Source: Sphagnum compactum
Taxonomy: Eukaryota
DNA length: 64,000 bases
Direction: 5' to 3'
Assembly: GCA_965153455.1 (NCBI GenBank)
Contig: OZ234493.1
Location: 1,860,001-1,924,000 of the forward strand
The notes under the pieces are model-generated. The model was not told the origin of the DNA. It did no database searches and was given only the letters and a program-made list of their open reading frames with translations. Shown here piece after piece: positions 40,701 to 52,989 of this stretch. Position 1 is the stretch's first letter. Each line of letters opens with the position of its first letter. The position numbers were made by a program, and so were the translations under genes.

Positions 40701-43700
40701 ATAACAAACATTGTTGCAAACTTTTCTAACATACTTTTATTCTTCAAGTGTAAAAAAAATTCCTTATTAATGAATGCAAAATTTATAACCAAATTGTGAA
40801 AACTAAATGTGGAAATTGCATTTTATTGCATTTGTGAGAATTACTATCTATGAGAACTAATTGAATATGAGAAAATAAAAATTTGATACCTTGGCCAACT
40901 CTTGTTAACCCCAACTTTTTTTAAAGAATTGATTTTTTTCTCATAACCCTATGTAAAGATTGGAACCATCCATTTATAAAAATTAAAAATTAAAAACCAC
41001 TCAACATTAGTCATGAAACTAGACCTATGTTTATGGAAAAAAACATTATCAGTGGCAATGAATATAATATTTATAAAGAAAATGAGTATAATGATTAATC
41101 ATAGGTCAAGATGAAAGTAAAAATCTTTATGTGGTCATGAAAACTATGGTTGAAACCCTAGGCTTGAATGTAGGAATTTATGGTGACATATCATGCATGT
41201 GGAGATTGACGAATGCCATTTATGACATGGTCTTTTAAATGTAACAAACTAGATATTCATTACATGTGGAATTTCAAACCTTGCGAAATAATTAATATGT
41301 TTATGTCATACCTTCTAGTTGATTTATATAAATTCATAATTTTATGTAATTGACATGGTTACAATTAGACAAATGTCCAATTACATTTGACCACAAGGTT
41401 GAAAATATCACAAAAATCAATCCCATTTGTTTGTTAACAACCCTTTGTTACTATTTTAGCTTTCAATTTTTCAATTTCACCATTAACATTAGTTTTAGCT
41501 CTAAAGATTGATTTAGTTTTTATAGAGGTGATACTTAGAGGAAGTTTAATAGCTAGCATCTAAGTGAAATTGCCAATAATGGATTCAATTTCTTCATGCA
41601 TGGCTTGGTCCCATTCAAAATGAATCAATGTTTCACAAGTGCTTGAAGGTTCTTATGTGAACTTGCCATACCAACAAAGGCATTGGGTCAAAACATGTTA
41701 ATAGGAATAAAAAATGGTGTTGGAAGTCTTGAAAATTTTCAAACTTAATAGATATATTTTTGTTTTGACATTTTAAATTTCTATTTTAAATCATTCCAAG
41801 TTGTGTTACATGACTAATATGAGTGTTGAGGAATTTAAATAAAAAATAATTAAATTAAATTTTGGGTTTTGGTTTTAGTAAAGGACTTTTGAACTTGAAC
41901 AATAGTTGCATCATAGATAATCAAGTTTGCAAAGGATTAGGGTAAAGGGACTATTTGAATATTAAAAATTGATAATAAAAAAGTTTGATGATAGTAACCT
42001 ATTACCCACATTCAAAAAACACTCACAATGTGAAAATTATGGAATCTGAAAGTTTTAGAAACTCAAAATATGTTTCGAAATCTCAAAATTTCAAGAATAT
42101 TTCACCACATGTAAATGGGATGTAATGTACATAACATATAAAACAAAGTTGTAACTTATATATGACACAAGAAATTGAAACTTAAAATATATGGTAACAT
42201 ATTTTGGTATGATTTGAAATTATGATAACTTTTCAAAATGAAATGTATAATCTAGAAAAATATGCACATTTATATTTATTTAAAAATGACTAACACAAAA
42301 CATGTGATATATTAAAGCAATTATATGTAATTATGATAACAAGTTACAAAAGATTTCATTCAAAAATTTCTTCATACGAAAAAGTGAAAATAATTAAAAT
42401 GATTAATAATCCTTTTATAAATTAATCCCATTGGCTCCTACTGGTGTGCTTTGACCCCATTATATTTAAAAGGAAACATTCAAGTGCTATTTGATCACTT
42501 GAAAGTTGGAGACAGATGTTAAACCTTGGGAGGGTTAAGGGTTATTTGTATTTGGTGTCTAAATGTTCATATGTAAATTATGACTAACCATCGTGAAGCA
42601 TATACTTTAGTTGCTTTGGTGTGTTAGGTGGTAAATCATTCATGTTACTATTGCAATCAAAAAATGATGGATGTGAATCATGAACAACTATTTCAAGTGT
42701 GCCTACGGAATGGCAACAACGCTTTTGAATAGAAACTTAATCTTTGTTGGAAAAGTACATCTATATTAACAATATCCCTACTTTCAATGTCAAATTACTT
42801 GTTTACTGATAATTGTTTCAATTGTGCATTTAAAGACTTTGTGCATTGCTAAAGTTTTTATTTAACTTATGGAACCCCTAACTCATGATTTGCATCATTA
42901 GTTGTGGTCAAGGAGTATCATGAACAAGAAAGGAAAGGAATTGGAAATGGGCCACACATGTCAACATGCAAAAGATTTGAGACCCTTGTTGCTTAAACTC
43001 CCTTGTATGAGGAGCACGCTTCTTGCTTTGTTTCCTTTCATGATAAACTTTACACAAACTTTCATCTAGTTTTAAGGTTTGCATGTTTTTTACCATTCCA
43101 TTCTTGGATAAAAATGCTAAACTTTATTGATTTAGGTGCATTAAAATATATTATTATTCTTGAACTAGGGGGTGAACAATGAAAAAACTCAATTTGGAAA
43201 AAAGATGTAAAGGTTTATATGTGGATTGTGGACATTTCTCCTTACAAAAATGTTGGGTCTTTTTATTATCAAACATTAAAATGAGTGAAAAGGAAGCATG
43301 TGACCTTGATAAGTTAAAGAGCTTATAGAAATAAAATTCTTGCACATTCCAAGACCATGCAAAACACACTACTACATATTGTGCCTTTTTGCGAAGCAAA
43401 ATCAACCTGTCATATTTGCGATGCGACACGCATCGCAACTTGTGGAGCACCACCCATCGCTTATTTATAATGTACCTTATTTCATCGCTGCACTTTTGCG
43501 ACATATACCACAAACAAAACTTTGCGACCCGTTCAGTCTCCGTCCACACTAGCGATATTCCACATTTCGCAACGTTTAATCATACTCAAAACATCGCACA
43601 TTTTACAATACACAAAGTATCGCTACAAACTTTGAGAGTCACAAGACATCGCAAGCTTGCGTTATTCGACGCCTCGCATTTTGCGTTTGAATATGTATCA

Positions 43701-44095
43701 CAAACCTCATCACAAATTTTTACAAAACTTTTCGGTGGTGGACATATTGCAAGTTGCGATGTGCGTTAGCTCGCACATTAGTGAAAGGGTTACTGGAAAA
43801 GGAAGTTTCGCAAAAGGTTTCGCAATGTCATCTGATTCCCAAAACGCCATAAAAAAAATAAAAAATATTTTAGACCAAATGGAAGCTATAAATCCACTTA
43901 ATCATTATTATAATCTATTTTGCCTTAGTAGACTGAGTGAAAATATCAGTAAAGTACGCATAGCAGTGCTCCTATTCTTAAAAATAAAATTACACAATGG
44001 AACAGAATAGGCAGAAAATGACAGAATGAACATTGTGCAGTAATATAGAACCACAAGCCTCAATGGCAATTTGCATAAAAATAATGAGTAGTACA

Positions 44096-47000
44096 TTATA
44101 CGTGGTCATCATGCACCTCAGAGGTTGTAAACACAACCTCTGGTTTCTCACCTAGAATAGAACGGGACCGTGGCACATATGTGACAACAAGTGACCACTC
44201 CTCTGGGTTTGGGGGATAAGGAAGATAAAAGCATTATTCTACATGACTGGGAAAAGTAAATGGCTCTGAAGTTTGCCAATGAGATGGCTGATAACTGGTG
44301 GCAGATGTCTTTAACCGTGTGTGTCCGCACTCATCTTGAACTACAGTGCAATTTACACCAACAAGGTTCACTTTAAACCACTTGCACTTAAACACATACT
44401 CTTCAAACTTTGAATGTGCATCATAAGATACCACCAAGATCTCTTCCAGCTTTCCATAATGTGGCACAATATCTTGAACAATATTCCTGTCATGCCGACT
44501 GCTTCTAGAGTCCTGAATGAATTGCCCTTGAACTCCACAGTCAAAGGTGCGGCCCCTCTTTTCATCCAAACTGAAAATCCTGAAATTAATATTGTGAGTC
44601 AACAATTTATATGATAATAGAAACTTCATGCCCATAAAAATCATCCTAGAACATTCTAAGAAACTTGTCTGGAATGTGAAGATGAGTTAATATGCCTAAT
44701 GAAATAGAAAAAATAAATACCTGAAATGTCTTCCTTGTGTCCACATTGCTGAACGTGTTGTGACAACTCTCAGTGGTCCATGAACAATGGTGCGAACATC
44801 ATCTGTGATCTCTGGAAAACATGCTATACTTTCTCCTTGTGCCAACAATTGATCCACTTCAGCCAACTTTTCTTTTATGTACTTATGAAACGTAGGAAAA
44901 ATCCTTGATCTCCCACTCATACTTTTGGCATTCTCATAGAAGTTCCTCCACTCTTCCATGACATTGCTATTATTCAACATGAATGTGGTTATCTGAATTA
45001 ACTCTGTAGGTAATAACATATGTGTTTTGATGGCACCAGTCAAACGGTCTTCCTCCTCTTCTCTTTCCTCCATCCAGACATGAGGACATGATGGATCTAT
45101 AGTGGCCAAGATGTTGGTGTAATAAAACATGCTCTCTGCTGCCAAATGTCCTGTTGCCATGCTTCCCTCCACTCGTGCATGGTTACGGACATAACCCTTT
45201 AATACTGCCATATATCTTTCAAGCCAATACATCCACCGACAATGCACAGGACCAGCAATGGCTATCTCATCCACAAGGTGAACTTGGAAATGCACTTGAC
45301 AATCAAAAAATGATGGAGGGAAGGCCTTTTCCAACTTGCATACCACCTCTGCTGCTATTACCCTCATTATTGGAATCTCCTCTACAAATAACTCCTTTGA
45401 ACATACCCATCTCAACAGATATCCCAGTGACCAAAGAGCATCTTGTACTTCTGCACTGGCTAAGCCTATTATTGCCACAGGCAATATGTGCTGCAATAAA
45501 CGATGATAGTCATGTGTCTTGAGATACCTTGGCCACTTGTGGTCATCGTCCCTACCAAAAGCTTTTTGAAGATTAGCTCCATAACCTGCAACAAGGATCC
45601 ATAAAATTATACAAAAGTATTCTAAACATCCAACAGATAGCATTCTATACTTCAAATTCTTTCTCCAGTATAAGGCATAAAGATTTAAATATAAATAAAA
45701 GCAACAGAATACCTTTGCCATCTAAATTCAACCCTTGCCATCAAAGTTCAAACCTGTAGGGAATCGCATCTCTCCTATGCGATTTCGAAAGTCTTTTCTT
45801 TCCTGTGTAGTAAGTGTCCATGGAGCTGATGGTCGCTGCTCAATACCTGTGTTAGGATCAATAGTAATCCACACATCGGGATGCCTCTCAAAATCCTCAC
45901 AGGCCTCCCTAAAGTTACTGTCCTTATCTCCATAGAGCTGTTTTATGATAGCCTTTCCCACATTTCCCTCAATGTGCATGGGGTCCAAGAGATGACGTAT
46001 TTTCAGCTCACCCCAGTAGGGCAAGCTGTTGAGTATACCCCACCTTGTCAATCCACTACCCTCAAACACCATAGAATCATTTGGTTCAATAACTCTATTG
46101 GCCACATCCCTCCAATATGCAAAAGTGGTAGCTTTTGGAATATCACGCTCATCACCATAAGGCATGTCAAAAGATGAAAATAAAAATGGGTCTGATCTCA
46201 TATCATGTCCCAGTGGAAGAAACTTTGTATGGCCAAGGTAAACAATTTTGCGAAGATGGCTTGAATATTTAGCCATGTCCTCCAAACTTGGGCCACATGT
46301 AGAGCAGGCCTTGTAGCCTTGAGTTTGCAGCCCACTTACAAAACCAAACCCTGATTGTAGAAGAACTGAATATTAGAACAACAAATAATCACAAAACAGA
46401 ATAATAAAAAAATATATAGAGGTATGTGCATGATTTCTTACCAGGATAATCATGCATTGTCCACATGCAGATTGCCCTCAACTTGAATACACGTGGTATT
46501 CCTCCAGTGGTCTTCCTCCCATCATATTGCCATACTCCATACCATAGCGTTTTGAGCTTATCAACCACCAGTGCTAAGTAGGTGTCTAGGTTTTTCACCT
46601 TACTTGGCCTTGGGATAATAAGAGAAAGCAGCAAAAATCCTTTTTTCATAGACAACCACGGAGGAAGGTTGTAATTCATGACAACAACTGGCCAAACAGA
46701 GGTAGGTCGTCCCTTTCCTCCAAGTGAATGTGGACTAACACCATCTGATGCTAACCCCAACCTCACATGCCTAGGGTCACGCTCAAACTCTGGCCATGAT
46801 GACTCCACATGCTTGTGAGCAGTAGAGTCAACCGGTAACCTCATAATACCAGGCTCTGATCGATGTTTCTTATGCCAAACCATTAATTCGGCCAAGTCTG
46901 TACATCGATACATGTGCAGCAAGCGAGGAATAATGGGAAACCACCTTACTGATTTCCTGGGCACCTTCTCTGTAAGCATGTGAGGATCATATCGAGCCTC

Positions 47001-48914
47001 TTCACATGTACTGCACTCCGTTAAATGGGCATTGTTCCCATGAAATAGCATGCAGTCATTAACACATGCATGGACAATTTGATACTCCATGCCTATAGAG
47101 GATAAGATCTTTTTAGCCTCCTTCCAAGATCCTGGCAAAACATTTTCCTTAGGCAGCAAAAGGCTATGACAATACTGGAAAATGTTTGACAACATAGTAT
47201 TGTTTGCCTTGTGTTTTGCTTGGATGTTTAACAACCCCAATAGGGCTGCTAAACGGCTTAACCTTGCACCTTGAAAAATAGGCGTTTGAACATGTGCCTC
47301 CGCCTCTTGCCACTGCCGTTGTCCCTGGGCAGTATGTTGATGACGTGGATCATCTGCATTGGCTCCTTCATCATGTGGGTTGCCAAACATATCATCAACT
47401 ATGTCAAGTCCAAACCAGTCAACCATGAAGTCATCCGTCGCTTGTTCTTGGTTTGCAGGCAGTGGTGCTTCCTGAACTGGTTGAAAGACACCTTCATCAT
47501 GAGCAGACAAGTCATTTGATGAAGAATGAGTTGATGAAGAGTCTGATTTGTGTGGCATGCCCATTTCCCGATATGTTGCTCTCAACCTCCGTGGCAGCAT
47601 GTCTTCAGAAGGCCGAATATTCTATGCAATACCAAATCCAGAAGATCTTAACTATATACAAAGCATAGTTGCATATTACATTATAAATAAAAAATGCCAA
47701 AATGCATGTATATAGATATGGTATGTTATGTCTTAAACAAAGTACATAGTTCAGAAATGGTGGAATCCTAATTCCAGTCATAGTGTGTAAACAACTCATC
47801 TCCTGATCTGATGGTACTAGTAGCTATAACCAGGCAATGGTCTTCATGATAAGTCTGGCCATATGGTGCTGGAGGAGGTCCCTCAACAAAAACCCACTCA
47901 CAATTAGCCCTACGCTTAGGCCGAGTCCCACCGTACTGTTGATGAAACCAGCAATGTTTCCAGAACGTATGGGGTCTCCATCTATCACCCTCCCATCACT
48001 ATGCCTCCTAGTGCTACCAGCAAATGTGTCCATATCAAGAGCAAAGGTCTTCCACTCAGGATGTTGTGTGAGGATCATGTTCCAATGTCTTCTCTTATAG
48101 ATAGGCCCACCATAAGGGAACAAAGTAGGACCCTCTCTACGACAACTAGCTGAATCCTCTACAATGATGTCCTCACAAGCATATACTCCATAGCCATGCC
48201 TCTCTCCAAGTGTAGAGGTCTTAACAATCCATCGTCTACCCCAAACCACAACCTCCTCATCATAGGGCAAACTATCAAGCAACCCAAGAACTGCAGGGTT
48301 CCATGACTGGATAATATTGGCACATTTGCCAGTGAACTCACACATACCCCATCTGCCCTCAACAATAGTCTTAGCATGACCCTCACTTGGACGTTGTGCT
48401 TTGGATCGCTGCCTAATGGAGGGCACACGTGGCCTTGCCTCATGATATGGCTTACTGGCCTCATGAGAGGTACCAATCCCTACAGCAAATGCATGCGAAA
48501 GTGCATTTCCTATGGCAGTTAAAACCCCTTGTGATAGAACATAGGGTGGTGGTGTCATACGGGAACCCTATTACATTCAAAAAACCACAACAAACCATGG
48601 AAGTGAAAATAGTTTCAAAGAGGATTTCATGAAAAGTAACATGTATCAAAGAGGAAAAATGACAATGGTAAAATGACACTTACCACATGAGATGAAGAAG
48701 CTCCTGGGGTAAGACCACGATGACGCCCAAATCGCTGAATGTGTTGAGCACAAACATATGACTTTTGTGAAATCTGACCAACACACTTGGTGCATTGGCA
48801 AAGCTGCCGAGGTGGACCATGAGAAGAATGAGACACCTCTGCCTGCGTATGAACTGATGTGCCTTCATTTGAGGAGGATGAGTCACTAATGGAGACAACG
48901 GAGGAGGAAGACAT
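44096..48914 (-). pseudogene. CACTA transposase (TnpD/Tnp2: transposase-associated Cys motif, Transposase_21, DUF4218, DUF4216-like)
   Basis: GT-AG exons 48914-48684, 47651-~46442, 46350-45754, 45585-44721 and 44579-44096 join in frame. Motifs: HACVNDCMLF, WFPIIPRL, RHVRLGLASDG, YNLPPW, TMHDYPG, LDPMHIEGN, KTHDYH, RWMYWLERYM, FKCKWF. Premature stops at 47622-47624 (TAG) and 44234-44236 (TAA). Confidence 0.92.
47768..48567 (-). pseudogene. SET-domain (protein lysine methyltransferase-like) exon within the CACTA element; one 1-nt frameshift
   Basis: VKTSTLGERHGYGVYACEDI (motif I), FPYGG (II), IDGDPIRSGNIAGFINS (III). After correcting a 1-nt deletion at ~47928 it continues RANCEW...LVIATSTIRSGDELFTHYDWN* (IV). 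AG acceptor at 48568-48569. Confidence 0.85.
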
Positions 48915-49642
48915 ATCATCTGTCACATTAATAAGGCACAAATGTAAGGCAAAGACCAGATTAGACTTTCAAAAATCATGTGATACAACAATATAAACCC
49001 TTGACTACTCATAAATTGAGACTACCTAAACCAAAAAGAAATGCATACCTGCATCCAATGTGGGTTCAACAATGCCTATAGGACTGGTTGCCCGAAACCC
49101 TTTGGCATATGCAAAAAAAACAACAAAATGTTAAAGCCAGAATAAATTAAAACTTTGCGAACCCATTGCGAATGCCCCACCATCGCATCCCTCTTCGCAT
49201 CTACATATGTTACTTAAACCAAAGCCCTAAACCCTTTAACTTCCTCCTACATTAACAAAGGCCCAGACTTTGCAACTCTTTAACTTTGCGAAACTAACAG
49301 CATTGCACGGCCTTCGGAAATGCGTCCATTAGTCATTTTTGAAACCCAGACTCCTTTGCGATAAATAGCGTATCGCAAGTTGCGATGCGGATTACATCGC
49401 AAGCCCTGAATTGCCGAAAGTCCTTAAGCTGGAACGAAATCCCTTGAAGGTGTAGTGAAATCTTTCTAGGGGTCTAGACTAGAGTAGGATGGCGAGTGAA
49501 TTTGAATTCATTCTTGGCATTGCTCGAGAAGTGTCGAAGGAAAGCTTGGGCAGAGAGGAGGTTGTGGATTGTAGTGGCTAGGACTGGTGGAGGGGGTTTT
49601 GGGTCTAGAGGAGGTGACAATAATGAGGAAAGGTTGAGGAAA

Positions 49643-51329
49643 ATGGTTGCTGATCACTTGAGAGCTTCAGAGCTATTTGCAATCGATACTAGGACACCTG
49701 AAGGGCTGGCATCCTTGACAGCCATCTTAGGTCAAGCATTGCAAGCAGGGCTGACTGCTGGGGAAGCACAAAGAAAGGAGGAGGCAAGGAAGGCTGCAGA
49801 AGCCAAGGCAGCAGAGAAGAAGAGAAAGAGAGATGGGGGAGCAACAACAGGAGCTCTCTCACCTAGAACTCTTGAGAAGAAAAGGAGGAAGGATGAGAAG
49901 GATGCCATCAGAAAGGAGAAGCTCGACCTGAAGAAGGAGGAGGAGAGGAAGAAGCTCCCTCTGATAACATTGGCAGAGGAGGGAATTCCAACCGAGCTGG
50001 CATACACTGGGGCCAAAAGCACCATTAGGCACATTGTCTCCACCAACTTTGCACGAGGAGTTGAGTGGGGCACTCTCTCAAAGGCAGAACAGAAGAGAGT
50101 GATAAATCAGGTCAAGGGAGCATTTCGAAATGGAGGAGAGCTTGATTCACAGTGGATTGCAGACAAGATCTCCAATTCAATGTCTCAAGCAAGATACCAT
50201 GACAGGATGAAAATTCGTGCTCACCTGAGAGACCTGAATGTGTACAAGAACTTGGAGAGGCCGCTTCAGTTCTCAGAAGACATCTGGAATGCCTTCTACC
50301 AGTCTGAGGTGTAGCTGAAAGCAGCAAGGCAGCTGAAGGAGATCACACAGCAACTAGCCAAGGCCAAGAAGGCAAGAGAGTTTGGGAGGTCTGACCGTGA
50401 CTTGAAGGCACTGGAGCTGAAGCTTGCTAAATGCCAATCAGTGGTGGACGAGGTTGGTGATCCACCATTGAAGTTCCTCAAGGCAACAGAGCGAGTGAAA
50501 CTGGTTCCACCCACCACCCACAGGCTAGGGCAAGGTGGCATTCCCGGCCTCAAAGCAGCATTTGTAAGTACCCTCCCTCTCCTCCATTTCTTTCCTGCAA
50601 AGATTCAAATAAAGTTGAGTTTCTATGGAGTCAAATAGGATTGTTTGCGATACCTCTACGATGCGAATTGCATCGCAAATATAGGTCAAATGGCGTTTGT
50701 TTCGCAAAGATACGATGGGATTTGTTTCACAAACTGCTTCGCAAGTTTCAGTATGCAAAGGTCTCCGCTTCGCAAAAGTGGTCGGAGACTTGAATAGATT
50801 CTTTATGCGTTTTTACTGACCTGTTGTATTGTGGGGACAGTATAAGAGGTATAAGAGGAAGATCACAGCTGCAGAAATGACAATGGGCCAGGAGCATGAC
50901 AAGGAGCATCTTTTTGAACATGTTGATGCACTATTGGTGAGTGGGTTTGGTTGGGATTCAATTTCTGTTTGTGTTGAGATTGTTTTCATTTGAATCAAGA
51001 TTTTCATTTATGGTGTTGACTAAACTTTGCATGTTGAAATGCAGGCGTCTGAGGGTGAGAGTGAGAGCTCCCAGGGCAGCAGTGATGAGGAGGAGAGAGG
51101 CGCTAGCACTGCTCCCAATGCTACCAGTAGCAGTGGACCTAGTTCATTTGCTAGTCGAAATGCAGGTTCTGCAAGGGGCAAAGATAAAGAGGATAGGGAG
51201 GAGGAGGAGGAGGAAGGGTAGGGGGACGATGAAGAGAAGGAGGAGGATGAGCAGCCTCCCCCTCCACCAGAGAACACTAGGAAGAAAGATTCAAGGAAGA
51301 AATCCAAGAGGGGAAGGAAGTCTAGATAG
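49643..51329 (+). pseudogene. CACTA ORF2, TnpA/Ptta (Transposase_24)-like protein
   Basis: Basic NLS-like tracts, RPLQFSEDIWNAF and THRLGQGG motifs; GT-AG introns at ~50564-50840 and ~50937-51044; acidic C-terminal tail. Premature TAGs at 50312-50314 and 51219-51221. Confidence 0.7.
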
Positions 51330-51628
51330 ACAGCTAGTGTGTTAGATACCCAAGGGTTGCAAACCCTTTTACATTGTAAATTTTGAAATTTTGATATAGA
51401 TATTTTTTTTTGCCTTCCAAAGTGACTCCAAATGAATATAAACCCTGCTTCCAAAATAAAAATACAATGCCATGCTCTTGCGATACACAGTGGATCTCAA
51501 AACCATTTGCGAGTCATAATTCTTCGCAACACTGCAAAAGCCAAAAGACCAAATATACCATGTCACAGACATCGCTACACTCTTACGGGTAAAATCATTC
51601 CAGAATAGGTTTGCGAAATCATAGATTT

Positions 51629-52052
51629 CGCAAACTTTAGCGGCATTTTGAGAATCCCAAAATGTTTGCGTTAGATCTTACATCGGAAACAGATAGACTT
51701 TTGAGTCGATTCACTAAGTCGTTGCGTTGATGGGTTTGTTGCAAATAGTTTCTGATGTAATGTTAATCACAAACTTTTAGCGGCATTTTGAGATCCTGAA
51801 ATGTTTGCGTTAGATCTTATATCGGAAACCGATAGACTTTTGAGTCGATTCGCTAAGTCATTGCGGTGATGGGTTTGTTGCAAATAATTTCCAATGTAAT
51901 GTTAATCGCAAACTTTTAGCGGCATTTTGAGAATCCCGAAATGTTTGCGTTAGATCTTATATTGGAAACCGATAGACTTTTGAGTCGATTCACTAAGTCG
52001 TTGCGGTGATGGGTTTGTTGCAAATAGTTTCCGATGTAGTGTTAATCACAAA
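51629..52052. repeat. Three tandem copies of a ~139-140-bp unit in the CACTA right subterminal region
   Basis: caaactttagcggcattttgaga...gatagacttttgagtcgattc...gttaatc repeated at ~51630, ~51770 and ~51908. Confidence 0.9.
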
Positions 52053-52989
52053 CAATGTATAGAAGCAGTTATAATCGAAAATGTTTTGCGATTTTATCAA
52101 GTTCGGGAGTTGTGAAGGACTTGCGATGGTACGGGTGCGAATGTTATGGTATCGCAAAAGGTTAAGAGTTTGCGAGGAATTATGGTTCACAACAGCGGGC
52201 TTTCGGAAATTTCTTTCTTTGTTGTTTGCGATGATATTTGGATCGCAAAATAGCCCCCTGTTGTTGTAGTGACATCTTTGATTTGCTTTGTTTCTTTCCA
52301 AGAAACATGAAGTTCAACATTTCTTTTATTTTGGATGTCATGAGCCTCCCCTCCCATCACTATAACTATGGATGACGAGTGAATTGTTCATTCACCTTAA
52401 ATGAACAAGGTTTGGTTTCCTGGACATGGTAACTAACACTAGAGTCCATGGTAGCACATTCACTATTTAAGCTATATGTTAAAAGAATTTAATATACTGC
52501 ATATGAACTTGGTTACACCATCAAGATTGCACGACAAAAATTGAATAGTACAAAACTTGTGCTACATTGTTCCAATCTTTGATATCATGTTGAAATGAAT
52601 TGTCTTACTAATTAAAATTGTTTAATTAGTTACTCCTATGTATATGGACCTCACTTAAAAAGTCAAATATTTTACAAAATAGATAATTGTTAATTGATTG
52701 TAATAGCCAAAACAACATAATTATTTGATGTTTAAACTAATATTGTACTATAGCTTAGGAAAGGTCCAAGCCTATAGATGTTAATTTTTGAATTCAATCC
52801 TTATAATCACATAGGTAGGTTGTACAATTAAAGTCCCATGTGCGATCATAGTCAAACGAGCCAAAAACCATGTTGGATGATCGAAAAATTGTCAAATTTT
52901 TCAAATATATTTATGTAATGCCATTTTAATGTCATGTTGATTAAGGAAATTTGTGCTAAATGATTTATATGAATTTTTAAAAATTCAAA

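Follow-up and report, generated by a model that had tools for sequence, protein, structure and literature searches.

We analysed a 64,000-nucleotide (nt) stretch of the Sphagnum compactum genome (contig OZ234493.1 of assembly GCA_965153455.1, positions 1,860,001 to 1,924,000; hereafter the window), which protein matches place in Sphagnum. The window contains a complete minus-strand copy of a CACTA (En/Spm) transposon that carries, together with a TNP2-type transposase, an accessory gene for a SET-domain protein. The accessory gene is real, and comparison of related sequences supports well its combination with a short upstream exon (exon 1) encoding a Cys/His module. The locus is probably the principal transcription unit of a Sphagnum CACTA that is present in high copy number and belongs to an old bryophyte lineage with a SET accessory gene. 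An earlier sequence-only reading of the window had proposed that exon 1 is spliced alternatively to the SET exon or to the transposase. The alternative-splicing switch is a hypothesis. The complete proposal, in which a bryophyte CACTA would make a SET methyltransferase and a transposase from one coding first exon by 3' splice-site choice, and delivery of this histone or protein methyltransferase to the element's ends or transpososome would tune mobilisation against self-marking, appears to us rather unlikely as a whole.

A Cys/His exon in phase with a SET exon

Exon 1 (48684..48919, minus strand), delimited by reading, comparison of copies and a joint in RNA runs, encodes 77 amino acids (aa), a Ser-rich leader followed by the Cys/His module. 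The main ATG lies at 48914-48912 (MSSS...); the open reading frame (ORF) contains LCQCTKCVGQISQKSYVCAQHIQRFGRH and the module LCQCTKCVGQ...HIQRFGRH, and ends with ...SSSHV at 48684. It is directly followed by a phase-0 donor, GTAAGT at 48683-48678, which is present in 19 of 19 aligned copies. All 18 metagenome loci with exon 1 follow the window colinearly and consist of unspliced DNA: they are copies of the element, not transcripts. Intron 1 is predicted to span 116 nt (48568..48683, minus strand) and to end in aatag, and aatag/GGTTCCCGTATG opens a long ORF. The exon start at 48567 (tag/GGT TCC CGT ATG) is in phase with the exon 1 donor, and its AG occurs in 12 of 14 copies, L007 and L012 having TAAGG. 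For exon 1 (48914-48684, with its phase-0 donor) and for the in-frame SET acceptor, our minus-strand reading agrees with the earlier one.

Among the Sphagnum copies we counted 14 insertion or deletion (indel) events in the 116 nt of intron 1, none of them a multiple of 3, one event in 231 nt of exon 1 and four in 797 nt of the SET exon. The pattern in intron 1 is as expected of an untranslated intron, though T runs may have raised the count. The exon 1 protein is kept at 64-78% identity in homologues from the liverwort Calypogeia and from a Logan contig, which marks this exon as more than a chance ORF.

The SET exon (47768..48567, minus strand) was defined by reading, copies, Pfam and structure; in intact copies it encodes 266 aa, with an internal ATG at 48558. 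The family stop codon is TAG at 47770-47768 (5/5 copies). In the window the interval 48567..47768 measures 800 nt and is not divisible by 3: from 48567 the frame is open for 247 aa, up to a stop at 47826-47824, and the last 75 SET residues before the family stop lie in another frame. The cause is the loss of one base from the G run at 47929-47927, where all five other copies and all four sequencing runs have an additional G. The joined product would have 343 aa in intact copies, e.g. P0001, and 324 aa with a scrambled C-terminus in the window. The earlier claim of a SET exon ending at 47768 and a product of about 343 aa is therefore right for the family (P0001) but not for the window copy.

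With the Pfam SET model (PF00856; gathering cut-off 22.4 bits), three of the five intact relatives tested score above the cut-off (P0005, 27.8 bits; P0016, 26.7; P0001, 22.9) and two below it (P0020, 21.7; P0048, 13.0); the frameshifted pieces of the window reach a sub-threshold 14.9 bits at best (E 0.036). A profile of ten SET members recovered 129 representative clusters at E≤0.001 among 1.84 billion, and had no matches among Protein Data Bank (PDB) sequences at E≤1. Given so few clusters and no PDB sequence match, the SET clade is, by these searches, small and divergent. An AlphaFold model built with 10 sequences was unusable (predicted local distance difference test score, pLDDT, 37.9), and 63 sequences were used instead. 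The resulting AlphaFold2 model has a mean pLDDT of 74.9, with values above 90 across most of residues 140-343 and low confidence in the exon 1 module. A Foldseek search against the PDB gave 301 matches at E≤0.001; among the matches listed all are SET methyltransferases, led by LegAS4, MLL1, SET8, MLL3, G9a and ATXR5. As judged from the model, the product of the SET exon is a SET-fold protein.

The cofactor and catalytic motifs of SET domains are GxG, NH and the Tyr of a C-terminal ELxF/YDY. In this family the GxG glycines G202 and G204 are conserved, and so is the C-terminal Y340 in ...DELFTHY. The position of NH is occupied by N287-S288, with Ser conserved in at least 90% of members. Given this replacement of the canonical His, catalytic activity is not assured. 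Overall, the modelled fold makes the SET exon product a probable lysine methyltransferase.

The same combination in other bryophytes

Gene models of 343-348 aa that join ...SSSHV to GSRMTPPP... are found in S. jensenii, S. troendelagicum, S. balticum, S. compactum and S. fallax, and a truncated 242-aa model of S. tenellum (P0036) has the same join. It recurs in the liverwort Calypogeia fissa (P0020, 351 aa; P0041; P0056), and in Riccia sorocarpa three diverged subfamilies (P0120, P0143 and P0106) have a co-diverged Cys/His module in front of SET. Module and SET have co-diverged in at least four lineages. P0109 is one unbroken ORF of 423 aa on a Logan contig of 2,141 nt and is colinear with P0001 over the whole stretch between the start of the module and the SET end (residues 36-342 of P0001, 77-418 of P0109; E 7e-49). 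Whether that contig is a transcript or intronless DNA, its sequence reads the module and SET as one protein. This recurrence, in models from Sphagnum, Calypogeia and Riccia and in the P0109 ORF, supports the proposal that the SET protein shares the exon 1 module. From these comparisons we consider it quite probable that exon 1 is spliced to the SET exon, giving a 343-aa protein. Three further proteins (P0054, P0055 and P0057) read straight through intron 1 and hence represent unspliced DNA.

Contigs from RNA runs

The element is present in 24 listed sequencing runs, 12 of them recorded as RNA; in the 18 rows marked RNA or 'RNA?', the share of the element's sampled words does not exceed 0.38. 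We compared contigs from three metatranscriptomes (X1, X2 and X7; three studies) and from a DNA-like run, X19, whose kind is not on record. They revealed a leader intron of 129 nt with GT..AG boundaries (48920..49048, minus strand), upstream of which a non-coding exon ends at 49049. The joint 48919>49049 occurs in X1 (depth 26.5) and X7 (72.2), i.e. in RNA runs from two studies, and neither in X2 nor in X19; its short side has only 23 letters, so that its support is moderate. The splice sites are kept across copies (GT in 18/18, AG in 15/18). The joint sets the start of the coding exon at 48919, which is the upper coordinate given in the sequence-only reading.

After removal of the leader intron, the first three bases of the coding exon form an out-of-frame ATG (48919-48917), five bases before the main ATG. 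Its context, GATGATATGT, is the same in 17 of 18 aligned copies, L006 having AATGATATGT, and the ATG itself is present in 18/18. It may exert translational control via leaky scanning.

The leader intron 49048-48920 was the only one that appeared spliced among the joints listed. Contigs of the RNA runs are colinear with the window over the SET stop and the downstream spacer (X1, 47463-48408; X2, 47345-47791; X7, 47446-47741) and also over the introns of the transposase. The loose ends listed include none that is poly(A)-like, a further 141 not being shown. X1, X2 and X7 also cover the element termini and flanks; considering the very high copy number, DNA carry-over or read-through transcription can explain the colinear contigs, which therefore count neither for nor against splicing.

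Several observations weigh against the splicing of exon 1 to SET or are neutral towards it. The junctions 48684>48567 and 48684>transposase are absent among the 15 listed of 48 joints. In each of the three RNA runs there are contigs that keep intron 1 (X1, 48497-48881; X2, 48497-48888; X7, 48497-48687). With the exception of P0109, whose contig may be a transcript or intronless DNA, all module-SET proteins are gene predictions; the S. fallax annotation, according to the relevant part of PMC9946827, mixes RNA-seq-based and ab initio models, and the module-SET models of this species may be of either type. Substitutions among copies show no bias by codon position (exon 1, 0.040/0.030/0.024; SET, 0.029/0.039/0.025), so the copies give no selection signal.

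Retention of intron 1 would be expected if SET were an independent gene, translated as 263 aa from ATG 48558 on an intron-1-retaining transcript or from an internal promoter, with exon 1 a transposase-only exon or a relic. Models of 263 aa starting at this ATG are common, occurring in S. fallax, S. magellanicum and other annotations; 13 of 13 copies have the ATG, and in P0016, P0022, P0042, P0043, P0041 and P0056 the SET part has a Met at or close to its beginning. The 263-aa calls are, however, expected either way, since, on unspliced DNA, gene callers for metagenomes and Logan contigs have only an ATG to start from. The SET part of Calypogeia P0020 does not begin with a Met, so translation of this copy must start further upstream, and the same apparently applies to the intron read-through copy P0057. 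If intron 1 were retained in the mRNA, an upstream ORF of about 95 codons would precede the SET ORF. Together with the single ORF of P0109 and the co-divergence of module and SET, this makes an independent SET gene improbable.

Exon 1 and the transposase

The TNP2-type transposase body (44234..47621, minus strand; Pfam, tblastn) follows the SET gene after an AT-rich spacer (47622..47767, minus strand; reading, copies) that extends from the SET stop to the transposase ORF. It consists of four ORF blocks (47621-46389, 46372-45728, 45721-44696 and 44686-44234) with the first ATG at 47600. Blocks 47621-44696 match Pfam Transposase_21 (PF02992; E 3.9e-37 and 1.4e-07) and DUF4218 (PF13960; E 1.3e-30). 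No Cys/His module precedes the conserved region of this ORF.

The module of exon 1 resembles the N-termini of TNP2 transposases. In an hhalign comparison of 11 exon 1 sequences with seven TNP2 N-termini, six of them annotated as PF13963, we obtained a score of 27.6 (P 8e-5, probability 61%) over 29 columns with CxCxxC...H...G in register; the maximum of 200 column shuffles was 17.1, and none reached 27.6. On the opposite side, the PF13963 model has no match to exon 1 at E≤10, nor to the module-bearing proteins P0001, P0020 and P0057 at E≤1. P0091, a continuous 1,135-aa ORF on an ENA contig of 3,879 nt, is 45% identical to the window transposase, lacks SET and carries the Cys/His module (residues 5-32) directly on the transposase. 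With tblastn, residues 5-32 of P0091 map to exon 1 at 48809-48726 (39% identity, E 0.19), and residues 90-453 map to 47483-46404 with no match to SET; the match to the body extends over residues 90-1044 (47483-44165). Module and transposase matches of P0091 are colinear in the window. The angiosperm proteins P0094-P0101, which bear PF13963, also have the module on the transposase. These comparisons support exon 1 as a Cys/His module related to the N-terminal module of TNP2/CACTA transposases, and the earlier likening of exon 1 to the transposase-associated zinc motif stands on the profile alignment, its shuffles and P0091, the PF13963 model itself giving no match.

Since exon 1 resembles the TNP2 N-terminal module and P0091 has this module on the transposase, a shared-exon layout is plausible. 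The arrangement has the appearance of an ancestral transposase gene whose first intron has taken up a SET gene. That the SET exon lies between exon 1 and the transposase body, as had been proposed, agrees with the mapping of P0091 and with the same order of module exon, SET and transposase in Riccia models P0092, P0169 and P0175.

A transposase that includes exon 1 would need an acceptor downstream of SET. The acceptor named in the sequence-only reading, tag/TTA AGA TCT (AG at 47653-47652, exon start 47651), does exist and has the codon frame of the transposase ORF, but the frame runs TTA AGA TCT TCT GGA TTT GGT ATT GCA TAG and stops after nine codons. The in-frame TAG (47624-47622) is present in 4/4 copies (the window and the three that cover the site), and the AG of this acceptor in 3/4, L013 having AA. 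Conservation across copies holds for the SET acceptor (AG in 12/14), but not for a usable acceptor at 47651. Between 47767 and 47450 only three AGs are in frame at phase 0: 47651, which is stopped, and 47621 and 47471, which are open. The AG at 47623-47622 is part of the TAG itself, gives an exon start at 47621, is found in 4/4 copies and would produce an open fusion. On sequence grounds 47621 is a better candidate than 47651.

One pre-mRNA with two 3' splice sites could yield, via 48567, a module-SET protein with its poly(A) site in the spacer and, via 47621, a module-transposase protein, with the choice setting their ratio. The ancestral position of the module at the TNP2 N-terminus, where it is found in P0091 and P0094-P0101, its lack in the transposase ORF of the window, the phase-0 AG at 47623-47622 and the recurrent order in Riccia are consistent with such a scheme, and CACTA elements classically make two products from one promoter, as in En/Spm. 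A part of PMC4158355 gives each CACTA element two ORFs. However, the 47621 site is weak evidence by itself, because any ORF bounded upstream by TAG offers a phase-0 AG, and L012 has an additional TAG two codons past it. The exon 1-transposase junction, as described above, is not among the 15 listed of 48 joints, and the predicted TNP2 transposases P0093 and P0097 have no module. A direct connection of exon 1 to the transposase is absent from all 18 proteins that bear exon 1, which is a weak test; the sole model with both (P0003, Sphagnum, 404 aa) passes through most of SET and uses an internal GTGAGT. We regard the two-site pre-mRNA as tentative, with the balance somewhat against it; that the transposase gains exon 1 by alternative splicing to 47621 is, taken alone, possible but somewhat less likely than not.

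The P0003 model also raises a SETMAR-like polyprotein of module, SET and transposase, in which the SET stop would be spliced out. Predicted fusions of this kind are P0003, from the GTGAGT at 47901-47896 to an acceptor before 47491, and Riccia P0092, P0169 and P0175. The SET stop, though, is conserved in 5/5 copies; in P0003 and P0169 the fusion removes the catalytic C-terminal part of SET; and a single model, P0003, stands against a 360-member cluster in which the listed exon 1 models have 343-348 aa. Such fusions are typical of gene finders crossing decayed copies, and a polyprotein is very improbable.

Two sequence features coincide with the joint in P0003. The GTGAGT donor at 47901-47896 lies inside the SET coding region, where conserved C-E-W codons make it, and the AG before 47491 (47493-47491) lies in the transposase exon, where P0003 joins the truncated SET in phase 1. 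Separately, a host protein predicted in Sphagnum balticum, P0099 (1,720 aa), combines WRKY and DNA-glycosylase-like (DEMETER-type) regions with about 95 residues of the element's transposase N-terminal exon, at 87% identity. This segment is an exonised piece of the transposon or else an artefact of the gene model.

Termini and other features of the element

The transposon copy extends over 8,905 bp (43367..52271, minus strand), as defined by termini, flanks and homology ends. Read on the minus strand, its 5' end at 52271 is CACTACAACAAC, to which the 5' end of L007 is identical, and its 3' end at 43367 is ...TGTAGTAGTG. The termini are of the CACTA...TAGTG type that characterises the CACTA/En-Spm superfamily, and the ends begin with CACTAC. 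The flanks contain a 3-bp target duplication, TGT, at 52274-52272 and 43366-43364. Homology to six metagenome copies runs out at 52271-52284, and contigs of the RNA runs split from the window at 43366/43367. Termini, duplication and homology limits together define a complete CACTA element; such termini and a 3-bp target duplication are among the superfamily features set out in a section of PMC4158355. A CACTACA at 49457 was considered as an element end and rejected, as six copies are homologous out to 52271-52284.

The motif TTGCGATGCG (at most one mismatch) occurs seven times against 0.62 expected, with sites at 43416-43763 near the 3' end and internal sites at 49369-49389 and 50669-50775. 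The 5' subterminal region (51600-52000) contains about three tandem units of about 139 bp each, with mutual inverted matches over about 100 bp; these units are also present in L002, L004, L007 and L011. L006, L008, L012 and L015 have about 310 additional bases at 49091 and lack 49429-49490 of the window. The variants at 49091 and 49428-49491 fall in the presumed promoter region between the divergent genes, beside the palindromic TTGCGATGCG at 49369-49389.

The divergent gene is a plus-strand, Lys/Glu-rich ORF of at least 386 codons (49478..50638; ORF reading, copy alignment). In the window it is cut by a TAG at 50312-50314, where L001, L010 and L014 encode Q. It matched no Pfam family, and its best score in the ESM Atlas (0.79, bacterial GTPase-like clusters) is not credible. 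This ORF may be the 'ORF2' equivalent of the element. With a shifted SET frame and a nonsense codon in its second ORF, the window copy is structurally whole yet genetically decayed. CACTA is the most abundant classified repeat type in published Sphagnum genomes, amounting to 6.8% of the genome in the figures excerpted from PMC9946827.

Discussion

The proposed course of expression is as follows. Transcription would start upstream of 49049, and the leader intron would be removed. Exon 1, with a Cys/His zinc-module-like motif presumably inherited from the N-terminus of a TNP2 transposase, would be spliced in phase 0 to the SET exon, yielding a 343-aa module-SET protein, a probable lysine methyltransferase. 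The transposase body downstream on the same strand could be reached in two ways: by a second splicing event that joins exon 1 to 47621, rather than to 47651, or by initiation at ATG 47600 of a transcript that is longer or separate. The shared module might bring the SET enzyme to the DNA of the element or to the transposase complex, so that the element would mark its own chromatin, and the splice choice or the expression level might couple mobilisation with chromatin marking.

The maize CACTA element En/Spm makes TnpA and TnpD by alternative splicing, i.e. multiple products from one promoter. The Sphagnum element shares with it the termini, the 3-bp duplication and the TNP2 transposase, and has a leader and several downstream coding units on one strand; one promoter with alternative splicing is therefore a natural model. 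Unlike in En/Spm, the second product here would be a SET enzyme and not a DNA-binding protein of the TnpA type, and the shared exon would be coding and contain the Cys/His module of the transposase.

In primates, SETMAR (Metnase) is a domesticated single-copy host gene, formed when a host SET gene gained a mariner transposase exon. It resembles our locus in that SET and a DNA-transposase module are linked via splicing. The Sphagnum element, in contrast, is mobile and present in high copy number, and its normal SET product ends before the transposase.

According to a passage of PMC12730594, accessory SET genes have been reported in HarbingerS elements, in MuDR of Phytophthora (both citing Kojima & Jurka 2014) and in Helitrons, and the CACTA-related Plavaka element PAG2 of the red alga Bostrychia is described in an excerpt of bioRxiv 10.1101/2025.02.11.637652 as having DNA-methylase and SET domains. 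In HarbingerS, MuDR and Plavaka, as here, a DNA transposon encodes its own SET protein with a presumed role in the chromatin state of the element. The present case differs from HarbingerS, MuDR and Plavaka in its bryophyte hosts, in belonging to the canonical plant CACTA/TNP2 branch, and in the nesting of SET between the module exon and the body of the transposase, apparently with the module as its own N-terminus. More distant parallels, covered in portions of PMC12730594, are the anti-silencing VANC proteins of VANDAL elements and the fungal KDZ, Plavaka and EnSpm elements that carry TET/JBP. There too a transposon-encoded factor alters epigenetic marks, possibly on its own copies; the enzyme class is different, and ours is known from sequence and predicted structure. 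Full-text searches (Repbase Reports and subscription journals lying outside them) brought up no description of a SET gene in a plant CACTA, nor of a SET protein using a transposase N-terminal module, and the part of PMC11982613 consulted has nothing on transposon-encoded SET.

For annotation, these results mean that hundreds of Sphagnum entries named 'SET domain-containing protein' are transposon genes, the P0001 cluster alone having 360 members. Transposon-encoded chromatin enzymes are rare and give direct access to the conflict of mobile elements with host silencing. In this element a SET enzyme has seemingly been built onto the N-terminal module of a transposase, an arrangement retained in mosses and in liverworts. 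Should the module target element DNA, the protein would act as an epigenetic modifier that targets itself to a canonical plant CACTA. If the sharing of one exon between two proteins is true, it may have helped CACTA elements to reach about 7% of Sphagnum genomes.

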